Under the pieces are notes generated by a model. That model was given only the letters and a program-made list of their open reading frames with translations, was not told the origin of the DNA and searched no databases. Shown here one piece after another: positions 20,954 through 25,936 of a stretch of DNA of 64,000 bases. The stretch is from Alphaproteobacteria bacterium (lineage in GTDB: Bacteria > Pseudomonadota > Alphaproteobacteria > JAQWUY01), in assembly GCA_965276005.1 (NCBI GenBank), contig OZ254962.1, positions 1,887,809 to 1,951,808 of the forward strand, in the 5' to 3' direction. Within the stretch, counting starts at the first letter, position 1. Each line of letters starts with the position of its first letter. Made by a program: the position numbers and the translations under genes.

Positions 20954-23900
20954 TTATGCCGGGGCGTCGTTTGTTTTGCCGCTATATACAAATATGCGTC
21001 TCAAGGTTTCGTACATTTTTTCGTCCAGTTCGTACAGGGGCACCACCTTTTGTGCCTTGATGTTGTTTGCCAACAGTGCCATATCGTATGTGCGGTGTAT
21101 TTGGCTTTTGTACTTGGTTTTGTATGTACCCTGTTGTGCGTTAAATACGGACGATACGGGGGTTTGTGTCGACGGTTGGTATAGTGCCTGCATGTCGATA
21201 CCGTTTAGATGGGCGTATACACCGCTGTTAAAGATGGTGTCGATGCTGCCGAGCGGGGCACCTAATGTGCCACTTGCACCGCCTGCTCCAGCACCTGCTG
21301 CCCCTGCACCGCCGGCGGCTCCTGCTGCGGCACCGGTACCACCTGCGGTTCCCACTGCTGCTGCTCCTGCTGCCGCTGCCGCTGCGGCACCTGTTGCTAA
21401 TATACCGCTGTTCATCACTGCGACAGCACCAGCACCTAACAGAGCGATACCGGCACCTGCACCGCCACCGCCGCCACCGCCGCCACTGCTACCACTGCGC
21501 TCGGGGCTTAAGTCTGCACTACCGTCGCCAGAGCTTATGGCGTCAATATTCCCTTCCAGTCCGGTAGACATACCTTGACGAAGATCTCCATCGCCGTGTC
21601 GCAATTTATAGTTTTGGGAATTCAGCACAAACTTGCCTGTATCACCGATGAGTATGGGTTTATTCGATCCATCTTGATCATCATTATATACAAATGCCCC
21701 GTTACTTATTTTCAATGTTACGCCGCTATCACCAACCGCCAAATCCCTATCATCAAACCCTTTTCTACCGCTTCTGATAGACACAGGGGCATATACTTCG
21801 CCTGGTTCATAGTCTCGGTCTGTTACATCAAAGTCGTCTATTTTTAGTTGTAGAGATTTTGCCGTAATCGATGCACCTGTTGCGTCCTGATAGGCTGCAC
21901 TCACACCGTATACTGTTTTGTCATTGCCATCTTTGAATACCAGAGTATTGGCGTTGCTGTAGCGTAGGGTCAGACCGGTATCTGCATCTTTTTGTTCAGC
22001 TCCGTTTTTATAAAACTTACCAGCTAACGATGCCGCATTTGTTACGAAGAATTTTTTATGTTTATCGCTGCCTGATGATGGCACGGCACCTACTTTGAAG
22101 CTCAAGCCGCCATAGGTGTTGCTTACAAATTTCAGATTGTCTCCCGAAACAGCGGGTGCACTGCTGTTGCCGTCATACACTTTGGTTTTTACCTTAGCGG
22201 TTACCTGCATGCCGTTACCGGGATTAGCGGTGTATATAAAGCCGTCTTGTTTATTAGACAAAACACCAGTAGCGTCCCAATTGGTACCACTGTGTGACTG
22301 GTTAAATTGGACAAACTCATAGTCGGATATGCCGCCCATAGTGTTATCATTGGGGGTTTTTGTCCACACTAGGTATCTCGCCTCTTCCTTGTTTGCTGTT
22401 TTTAAAGCACTACCGTCCGCTTGGTTGGTAAATTTGTCTGCTTTGAGTTCCAAGACAACCTCTGCGGATGATGGAGATTTAGTAGCCTCGACTTGCCCAC
22501 CGTTGCGGATAATAATTTCCGAGTCGCTATTCGCATTGGTTGTACCTGCATACGCAATGCTAACCCGTTCGCCTTTTACTTTGTAGACGGAGATTTTGCC
22601 GGTTGCTTTCTTGTCGGCTTGGGCACCTGAAACCTGTGTACCCCTTAGCATTTTGATAACCAAATCTTTACCAGCCTGTAGAACTTTGTCGCCTGCAACG
22701 GTGATTTGTGCTTTACCAACGGCTCGTTGCGATACTGTCAATTTTCCATCACCCTTACCATCTGCACCTTTGTATCCACCTGTAACATCGGTTTCGTTAT
22801 TGGCAATTATATCCAGCTTACCGCCGACTGTTATACTTTGGTTAATTATAACCGATCGCCCGGCAATCAATTGAAGATTACCACCGCCACTAGCATATAT
22901 GTTCGCATCTACGGTAATATCGTTGCTAGCAACAATTTTCACGCTTGTACCATTATTTAGCTGTGTTTCTATATCCACCGAATCGTCCTGAGGGGAAGGG
23001 GGGGTAAGATCTATTAATTCCACATTTCCTTTGTCGCTTAACGAACCGGGTGCCCCAACAACCAACTTCTCGCCAGTTTTATCGAGAGCTACGGCTCTGC
23101 CAAAATATCCACCACTACTACTGCCAGTGATTTTTTTCACGAGGGTTATTGTTGCTTTACCATTACCAGCAATACCAGAACCAGAAGCAAGATAGCCATC
23201 AAATGTTTTCCAACCACTAATATTATACAGATACACTGCTCCCTTCTTACTACTTTCACCCCATGCTCCGACAGCTAGTCTGGATCCATCCTTATTAAGG
23301 GCGATACCACCACCGAAATTAGCATTATCAATACCACTCGCAAAAATTTCCACAGCATCACCTGATGCAGCCTTTGCTACATATTTTGGAACTGGTAAAC
23401 GGCTAGCACCATACTTAATGGAAAATAGGAATACCGCCCCCCGGTCAGAACCAGAACCATCATAGTAATGATCTCCAACGGCTAGTCTATCCCCACTTTG
23501 ATCAAACGACAGTGCATCACCAAAGAAGCGTAAATCTTTAAAATGATTGGCATCTATCGCCTTTAAATCACTTACCGCAAGCCTACGATATACCACATCA
23601 TTGCTGCCTATTGTGTCGCCTTGTGTTGACAATTTACTTCCTATATATCCCCAACCTGATCCCGACTTGTGCAAACTGAATACATATACCGCACCACCGG
23701 AACCACCTGAGTTATCGTAAGCTGACCCAACAGCTAATTTGGATCCATCACCACTCAGAGACACAGCACGACCAAATCTAGGGTCAGTAACCTGACCCCG
23801 ATGAAGATCCATTGAAATGATATCGCCACCAGCATTGCCAACACCACCTTGAATCCGTTTATATCTGGTGGCAACTTTACCCGATATCGGATCCGGAGCA

Positions 23901-25936: not shown

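Follow-up and report, generated by a model that had tools for sequence, protein, structure and literature searches.

An FG-GAP-containing TpsA-like exoprotein with a conserved, cysteine-free C-terminal module and its dispersed paralogs in an uncultured alphaproteobacterial lineage

How TpsA exoproteins, the passengers of two-partner secretion (TPS; type Vb), are retained on the cell or released from it is understood in a few models, namely the disulfide loops of HMW1 and HxuA and the prodomain of FhaB. In this work, we analyzed a 64,000-nucleotide stretch of an uncultured alphaproteobacterial genome (contig OZ254962.1, positions 1,887,809 to 1,951,808; the whole stretch is called the window below), which carries on its minus strand a gene whose product, judging by its sequence, is a TpsA-type exoprotein with FG-GAP repeats. 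The TPS domains of HMW1/HMW2 from Haemophilus influenzae and of HxuA (PDB 2odl, 4i84) are related to that of the window protein. In HMW1 and HxuA, a small periplasmic, disulfide-bonded globular loop is described as anchoring the passenger by locking its C-terminus in the TpsB pore (PMC5422565). These are the proteins that, in our view, the window protein resembles most in function, without their disulfide loop: the loop has no sequence similarity to the tail of the window protein, and each has a dedicated TpsB encoded alongside it.

The etpBAC operon of enterotoxigenic Escherichia coli encodes EtpA together with its transporter. This adhesin-type TpsA provides the closest structure to the N-terminal 300 residues of the window protein (8cpk, E 1e-46; 8vba, E 6.6e-43), and it has neither an FG-GAP region nor a comparable C-terminal module. 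The C-terminal prodomain of Bordetella FhaB is very large and is removed by proteolysis, and fhaC lies at the same locus. This prodomain is described as conserved, retained in the periplasm and controlling maturation; it has no sequence similarity to the window tail. CdiA shares with the window protein the N-terminal TPS domain and a very large size, whereas its demarcation motif, polymorphic toxin, adjacent cdiI and cdiB are all four absent here. The window protein is not a CdiA; it is a TpsA by its N-terminal domain, lacking the adjacent TpsB by which such proteins are usually recognized. Finally, some TpsBs secrete more than one TpsA, as described for Bordetella FhaS with FhaC and for the TpsA sets of Neisseria meningitidis (PMC5422565). 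These precedents involve two or three substrates, whereas here we deal with at least 17 dispersed orphan genes.

The closest proteins in overall layout are TpsAs that combine TPS, FG-GAP and MBG/YDG regions, most of them alphaproteobacterial and annotated as filamentous hemagglutinin N-terminal or MBG domain-containing proteins, which show the same order of parts from the signal peptide through TPS domain, beta-helix, FG-GAP_2 repeats and stalk to the Ig-like MBG/YDG region. Two of them, P0043 and P0059 of Phenylobacterium parvum, are 30-32% identical to the window protein over about 57% of its length. Both end in a short loop with a Cys pair and P0043 has a tpsB 11 bp downstream, whereas the window protein has neither a tpsB neighbor nor any Cys. 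An earlier reading of this DNA, made from the sequence only, had considered FG-GAP repeats unusual in such proteins; six repeats are indeed present, but 12 distant homologues of other lineages combine PF05860 with PF14312, so that FG-GAP repeats are not rare in TPS proteins. What is new here is the conserved, cysteine-free C-terminal module, together with its occurrence on a large number of scattered orphan copies; a literature search on TPS plus FG-GAP proteins and on orphan TpsA families found nothing specific. The reading that we favor, with a probability of roughly 0.55, is that of an adhesin-like type Vb passenger family served in trans by a TpsB encoded elsewhere, with the tail as a retention module.

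The C-terminal module and the family that carries it

The open reading frame (ORF) at 20954..26008 (minus strand) is open and intact, and its first ATG, at 25936 and with AGGAG 7 nt 5' of it, gives a protein of 1660 aa without a single cysteine. In the order of the protein, its parts are the following:

25853..25936, minus strand: start codon and Sec-type signal peptide (aa 1-28, ...GGFAYA/GG), preceded by AGGAG, as read from the sequence
25070..25852, minus strand: TPS secretion domain spanning aa 29-289, its NPNG motif at aa 111, from PF05860, TIGR01901 and structures
24317..25069, minus strand: conserved extension past the TPS domain (aa 290-540), presumed beta-helix, 74% paralog identity
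22982..24316, minus strand: FG-GAP region (aa 541-985) with six repeats, PF14312 E 2.2e-22
22217..22981, minus strand: conserved stalk (aa 986-1240: ...IVASNDITVD...YLVWTKTP...), 50% paralog identity
21497..22216, minus strand: variable MBG/YDG-like region (aa 1241-1480: ...KVYDGNSSAP...), found in some paralogs only
21392..21496, minus strand: poly-Gly (G8), then a short conserved hydrophobic segment (aa 1481-1515), from the family-wide core pattern
21251..21391, minus strand: Gly/Ala spacer of variable length (aa 1516-1562) in imperfect GCN/GGN repeats, from the family comparison
20954..21250, minus strand: conserved family-specific C-terminal domain (aa 1563-1660) and stop codon, from the alignment of family tails

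All full-length members of the family end in the same succession of elements, that is, a glycine run, a short hydrophobic segment, a spacer and a domain of about 95 aa. The sequence-only reading had described a tract of about 90 Gly/Ala residues encoded by GCN repeats; the tract is there and so encoded, but it spans 82 residues (aa 1481-1562; 30 G and 30 A) and is composite, being made of G8, the hydrophobic core AGIALLGAGAVAVMNSGIL (mean Kyte-Doolittle value over 19 residues, 1.78) and a G/A spacer of about 50 aa. Across the family the core follows the pattern (hydrophobic x3)-G-A-G-(hydrophobic x6-8)-GG and reaches 19-residue Kyte-Doolittle maxima of 1.7-2.4, is uninterrupted for about 15 residues only, contains much Gly and lacks Lys/Arg on either side. 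Spacer length ranges from 4 to 50 aa and is greatest in the window copy; long spacers consist mostly of Gly/Ala. The repeats that encode the window tract are imperfect (GGN/GCN), with short perfect stretches, and the instability in length that had been suspected for it was borne out by four pairs of near-identical alleles from different assemblies (P0009/P0010, P0016/P0021, P0122/P0123 and P0002/P0003; 97-98% identical over the first 540 residues), whose poly-Gly runs and Gly/Ala spacers differ by in-frame insertions or deletions of 1 to 8 residues. The last 260 residues of P0009/P0010 have no other internal indel, and each of the other three pairs has at least one indel in the tract plus others upstream of the tail. 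These pairs also show that the length of the spacer is not critical.

The non-repetitive C-terminal domain, correctly anticipated at about 100 aa, measures 97 aa in the window protein and about 95 aa in the family, and is conserved in every full-length member with the consensus GSIDTIFNTGIYAHLNGIDMQAIYQP...VFNTP..VTYKAKY..TYDM..LAxNIKAQKxVPLYELDExLYETLKRIFVQQ. Its net charge ranges from -5 to +8 (+12 in one fragment) and is commonly +1 to +5, i.e. slightly basic in most members. An exhaustive search of 1.84 billion cluster representatives with a profile built from 24 of these domains matched only 18 clusters, with E-values that are all under 1e-14; each of these matches sits at the very C-terminus of its protein or fragment, and the full-length proteins among them all start with a TPS domain. 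The same profile found nothing in the metagenome contigs of the Joint Genome Institute (JGI). By this search the tail defines a narrow, lineage-specific family and is confined to one uncultured lineage. No significant match to the domain was obtained with Pfam (all 24 domains), NCBIfam (last 180 aa) or a PDB profile, which returned chance-level hits only. Likewise, at E up to 1 the last 180 aa gave no hit to any NCBIfam model of a sorting signal (GlyGly-CTERM, PEP-CTERM and relatives), and a 97-aa domain placed after the hydrophobic segment is unlike those signals, which have their motif, membrane helix and basic cluster at the extreme end of the protein.

The search for homologues of the whole protein returned the identical protein and 16 further clusters of the same architecture, 1329 to 2536 residues long, all on one contig of 2,965,790 bp, so that the family comprises at least 17 dispersed paralogs. 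Added up, the 17 copies make about 27,500 residues, encoded by roughly 83 kb of DNA, which is nearly 3% of a 3-Mb genome. A fragmented assembly of the European Nucleotide Archive contains close relatives, as do two further complete genomes (2.58 and 2.63 Mb). For 13 paralogs encoded on the 2.97-Mb chromosome, mean pairwise identity is 84% in the TPS domain, 74% in the segment that follows, 45% in the FG-GAP region, 50% in the stalk and 66% in the C-terminal domain, and the number of FG-GAP repeats across the family goes from about 4 to 29 as counted with a regular expression. Conserved ends (84% and 66%) around a variable middle (45%) fit a protein whose ends touch cell machinery and whose middle touches ligands.

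Regarding the remaining parts, the hydrophobic N-terminus is kept in the paralogs and begins in the window protein with a predicted Sec signal peptide (MKYSKKVFMVASSLYAIGVLSGGFAYA, followed by GG). The TPS secretion domain that had been recognized by eye scores 116 bits with PF05860 over aa 29-289 (E 2.9e-33, cut-off 33.5) and 73 bits with TIGR01901, the NCBIfam filamentous-hemagglutinin N-terminal domain (E 1.3e-20, cut-off 29.1). It contains the single NPNG motif of the 1660-aa protein, at aa 111, and its nearest solved structures are EtpA (E 1e-46), HMW1 and HxuA. The alignment to EtpA reaches aa 326 and that to HMW1 aa 363, and the conserved extension up to aa 540 presumably folds as a beta-helix. 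PF14312 gives 5-6 matches (79 bits, cut-off 23, six stretches), and six repeats start at aa 559, 644, 721, 805, 874 and 945, a regular spacing of 69-85 aa. No Pfam model matched across aa 986-1480, neither in the stalk (aa 986-1240) nor in aa 1241-1480, where the MBG/YDG models stayed below threshold in the window protein; only 16% of the columns in this second part could be aligned among paralogs, and relatives have PF18657/PF18676 at this position. The motifs of the whole region (IVASNDITVD, YLVWTKTP, KVYDG) are shared with MBG/YDG-type TpsAs of other, mostly alphaproteobacterial lineages, and the stalk motif occurs even in distant ones such as P0045.

Three family loci hold further features. 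In L002, two tandem family genes are separated by an interval (15600-15760) in which the 3' end of the C-terminal domain is found once more, as a remnant (...YNMALLGNNIIQQKVIPLNEWDEDTTNSIKEIFINQT and a stop codon), a trace left by duplication or recombination between members of the family. In L004, an 882-aa subtilase (Peptidase_S8; 6713-9361) lies directly upstream of a giant family relative whose ORF leaves the locus; it recalls SphB1, the subtilisin reported to mature FhaB. In L008, an ORF of more than 3198 aa without a Pfam hit lies downstream of the family gene.

Transporter linkage and possible roles of the module

No TpsB is encoded in the window, as the sequence-only reading had stated for the surroundings of the gene. 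Each ORF of at least 430 aa belongs elsewhere according to Pfam (Der, DctM, enolase-superfamily, Wzy_C-like, UbiD, AspS, PepA, LptD, MnmG, MnmE and AddAB), and a six-frame search of the window with a profile of four TpsBs of the lineage and with a canonical TpsB gave no hit. Since the canonical query did recover the four lineage TpsBs at their loci elsewhere, this test had power. The same holds for the other family genes inspected: none of the seven (the window gene, L001, two in L002, L003, L008 and L004, the last being the giant relative, whose C-terminus lies beyond the sequence read) has a tpsB within 10 kb. Six related TpsA genes without the tail, by comparison, have tpsB directly downstream (L009, two in L012, L013/L014, L015 and L016). 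Some of these belong to a second class of TpsA found in the 2.58-Mb genome (ERZ25067870), with TPS and YDG regions, no FG-GAP repeats and a different C-terminus, in which three of the four genes examined are followed at once by an ShlB-family gene and the fourth (P0035) sits in a defense island without one. Others (L013/L014, L015 and L016) are distant TPS and FG-GAP relatives from other lineages, and in 3/3 a tpsB directly downstream comes together with a close, HMW1/HxuA-like Cys pair at the end of the TpsA. A search of the JGI metagenomes with a full-length family profile found two distant relatives, each with its own tpsB. A close Cys pair is also present at the end of 18 of 88 distant homologues, where it is often the sole pair of cysteines in more than 2000 residues. 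Between the seven family loci and these six relatives, tail and missing tpsB neighbor go together without exception. The ancestral arrangement appears to be tpsA-tpsB with a Cys-loop anchor, of which the tail family appears to have replaced the anchor and lost the linkage to the transporter.

Conserved C-terminal motifs were also seen in these other TpsA groups. The TPS and YDG class (L009, L012) has its own, GxFxVSLR...LILD, and GLUG-type distant homologues have another, IRSIEVDGxxFxLE; short motifs of this kind seem to be common in these TpsA families. In L012 (1-9943), a TpsA-like product of at least 7390 residues with YDG repeats precedes one of the TpsB genes.

Under the reading of a passenger family served in trans, the protein would be exported by the Sec pathway and its TPS domain would be recognized by an unlinked TpsB. 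If a single transporter served many paralogs, this would account for the TPS domain being conserved more than any other part, and this conservation (84%) argues that a TPS-recognizing partner still exists. The beta-helix and the FG-GAP region would be displayed on the cell surface as variable binding surfaces, and the C-terminal module would be a retention device, not a cargo toxin, with the 95-aa domain kept in the periplasm as a stopper or docking element and the Gly/Ala stretch lying within the transporter channel or close to it. The tail would then play the part that the disulfide loop plays in HMW1 and HxuA, an anchor found at the same position in related TpsAs. Three observations hint at a periplasmic rather than a cytoplasmic tail, without proving it: (i) P0006, P0023 and P0031, otherwise Cys-free when mature, have a single close Cys pair, located past the hydrophobic segment and ahead of the C-terminal domain, which suggests an oxidizing compartment, (ii) the hydrophobic core is short and Gly-rich, and (iii) it has no basic flanks, the last two arguing against a strong stop-transfer anchor.

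Several results weigh against this reading. First, the AlphaFold2 models of the tail are of low confidence (pLDDT, the per-residue confidence score, 46 for the C-terminal domain alone and 43 for the hydrophobic segment plus C-terminal domain of a short-spacer member) and agree only on a beta-hairpin followed by two helices. Second, a search with one lineage TpsB and the four-TpsB profile found only three proteins, none from the 2.97-Mb or the 2.63-Mb genome; as this search needs shared 5-residue words and is, by our estimate, blind to a TpsB below roughly 40% identity, we do not read it as proof of absence, and it is fair to conclude from these sequences that the 2.97-Mb genome probably has no close homologue of the known TpsBs of the lineage. 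Third, the three TpsBs of the 2.58-Mb genome adjoin TpsAs of the TPS and YDG class, which was not seen among the hits from the genome of the window. Fourth, the window protein has no Cys at all and so cannot use a disulfide stopper. Fifth, the hydrophobic segment does reach the classical Kyte-Doolittle threshold for a membrane helix.

A wider claim would be that these proteins form a distinct branch of type V secretion without the one-gene-one-transporter rule, in which either a single unlinked transporter handles at least 17 passengers or no TpsB takes part, and in which an undescribed cysteine-free device fixes the passenger to the envelope and possibly spans it; this we regard as unlikely. 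Little credit goes to an envelope-spanning tether, in which the hydrophobic segment would be a stop-transfer helix of the Sec pathway that fixes the C-terminus in the inner membrane, with the C-terminal domain on the cytoplasmic side and the N-terminal part passing to the outside through a TpsB. The conservation of the segment, its Kyte-Doolittle values above the usual threshold of 1.6 (1.7-2.4) and the slightly basic C-terminal domain of most members would suit such a topology, but a Gly-rich core of about 15 residues without flanking Lys/Arg would not, and AlphaFold built no helix for the segment, at low confidence. Moreover, the lone Cys pair that three members have past the segment resembles the paired Cys of an extracytoplasmic passenger. 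To our knowledge, there is no TpsA with an inner-membrane tether, which we also counted against this topology.

It is more doubtful still that the family is independent of TpsB altogether, the 17 proteins staying in the periplasm or on a membrane, or crossing the outer membrane via another Omp85 machine (BamA/TamA), with the module replacing the anchoring role of the partner. The seven family loci without an adjacent tpsB, the lack of any detectable homologue of the lineage TpsBs in the 2.97-Mb and 2.63-Mb genomes and the way in which the tail tracks the missing tpsB all point in this direction. Against it, the TPS domain is the most conserved part (84%) and keeps its NPNG motif, which implies selection for a partner with polypeptide transport-associated (POTRA) domains of the TpsB type, the homologue search would have missed a TpsB below roughly 40% identity, and a domain of 95 aa is too small for a barrel.

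We consider it very improbable that the module is a membrane-active effector, that is, that the Gly-zipper-like segment and the Gly/Ala tract, possibly with the C-terminal domain, insert into a target or host membrane after release. The segment is conserved, and the Gly/Ala composition of the tail presumably resembles that of membrane-active peptides such as Gly/Ala-rich microcins and pore-forming CdiA C-termini, a likeness that we counted in favor. However, several members have hardly any spacer (its length ranges from 4 to 50 residues), no conserved immunity-like gene lies nearby, and 17 copies of one conserved effector would be redundant.

Finally, next to nothing is left of the suggestion of the sequence-only reading that the protein might be a polymorphic toxin of contact-dependent growth inhibition, with a C-terminal toxin and an immunity gene downstream, since the general layout (a large TpsA whose C-terminal domain is distinct, with little intergenic space ahead of the following gene) is outweighed by a C-terminal domain that is 66% identical among 13 paralogs while the middle of the protein varies more than the tail, by the lack of VENN, ELYN, QLYN, LYVN or similar motifs, of any toxin or pre-toxin hit in Pfam (or toxin family in NCBIfam or the PDB profile search) and of cdiB, by unrelated genes downstream at the seven family loci (signal-peptide protein, LysR, TpsA, phosphoribosyltransferase, GroEL and MscS), and, in the window, by a downstream ORF of 362 aa with a signal-like N-terminus that a GC-rich hairpin separates from the TpsA gene.

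Promoter, terminator and neighboring genes

Upstream and downstream of the gene, the following elements were noted:

26131..26144, minus strand: T14 homopolymer, 21 nt upstream of the -35 hexamer, as read from the sequence
26080..26109, minus strand: best sigma-70-like promoter match, TTGACA, 18-nt spacer, TG-CATACT (10/12 consensus matches, extended -10)
20901..20938, minus strand: terminator-like, C11-containing GC-rich hairpin past the stop codon, followed by U-runs (minimum free energy -31 kcal/mol)

From these pattern matches, the TpsA gene looks like its own transcription unit. The hairpin at 20901-20938 is not significantly better than shuffled sequences (z-score -1.45 at a minimum free energy of -31 kcal/mol), and its C11 homopolymer (20928-20938), paired with a G-rich complement, could vary in length. 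T-tracts also precede other family genes (T13 upstream of both L002 genes, T8 in L008), and the T14 tract may be an UP-element or another promoter feature shared in the family, or a slippage-prone switch.

The gene is surrounded by ordinary housekeeping genes, with ndk, holC, pepA, lptF, lptG and lptD upstream, and a 362-aa ORF, an AI-2E family permease, hda, rnd and aspS downstream. The 362-aa ORF (19740-20828), whose product had been described as secreted, is indeed there: it has a signal-like N-terminus, forms a run with the permease gene and hda, and has no match in Pfam (E up to 5) or NCBIfam (E up to 1). A DUF2066-type assignment that had been suspected was dropped when these permissive searches gave nothing. 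The lptD ORF (30862-34218) is unusually long, at 1118 aa, with a TTG start that overlaps the end of lptG. Its OstA/LptD_N matches are distributed across residues 132-486, suggesting that either the N-terminus is extended or the start was overcalled.

Between ksgA (34187-35062) and miaA/mnmG, a low-GC island (0.30-0.39) at 36000-47000 of the window looks like a mobile defense island. It encodes a DUF4143/AAA_14 ATPase (36942-38111), an IS1595-type transposase (38167-38826), a GmrSD_N/HNH endonuclease (39754-40839) adjoining an EcoRI-like adenine methylase (40836-41930), and an AAA_21/AAA_15 ATPase (45295-46482).

Implications for type Vb passengers

That these organisms are known only from assemblies sets a practical limit to work on them. 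Should the C-terminal module act as an anchor or a docking device, it would add to the ways in which type Vb passengers are known to be retained, and it would also make it possible to study the handling of many substrates by one transporter. Conserved ends around a variable FG-GAP middle suggest that the family provides a surface-variation repertoire in this uncultured alphaproteobacterial lineage.

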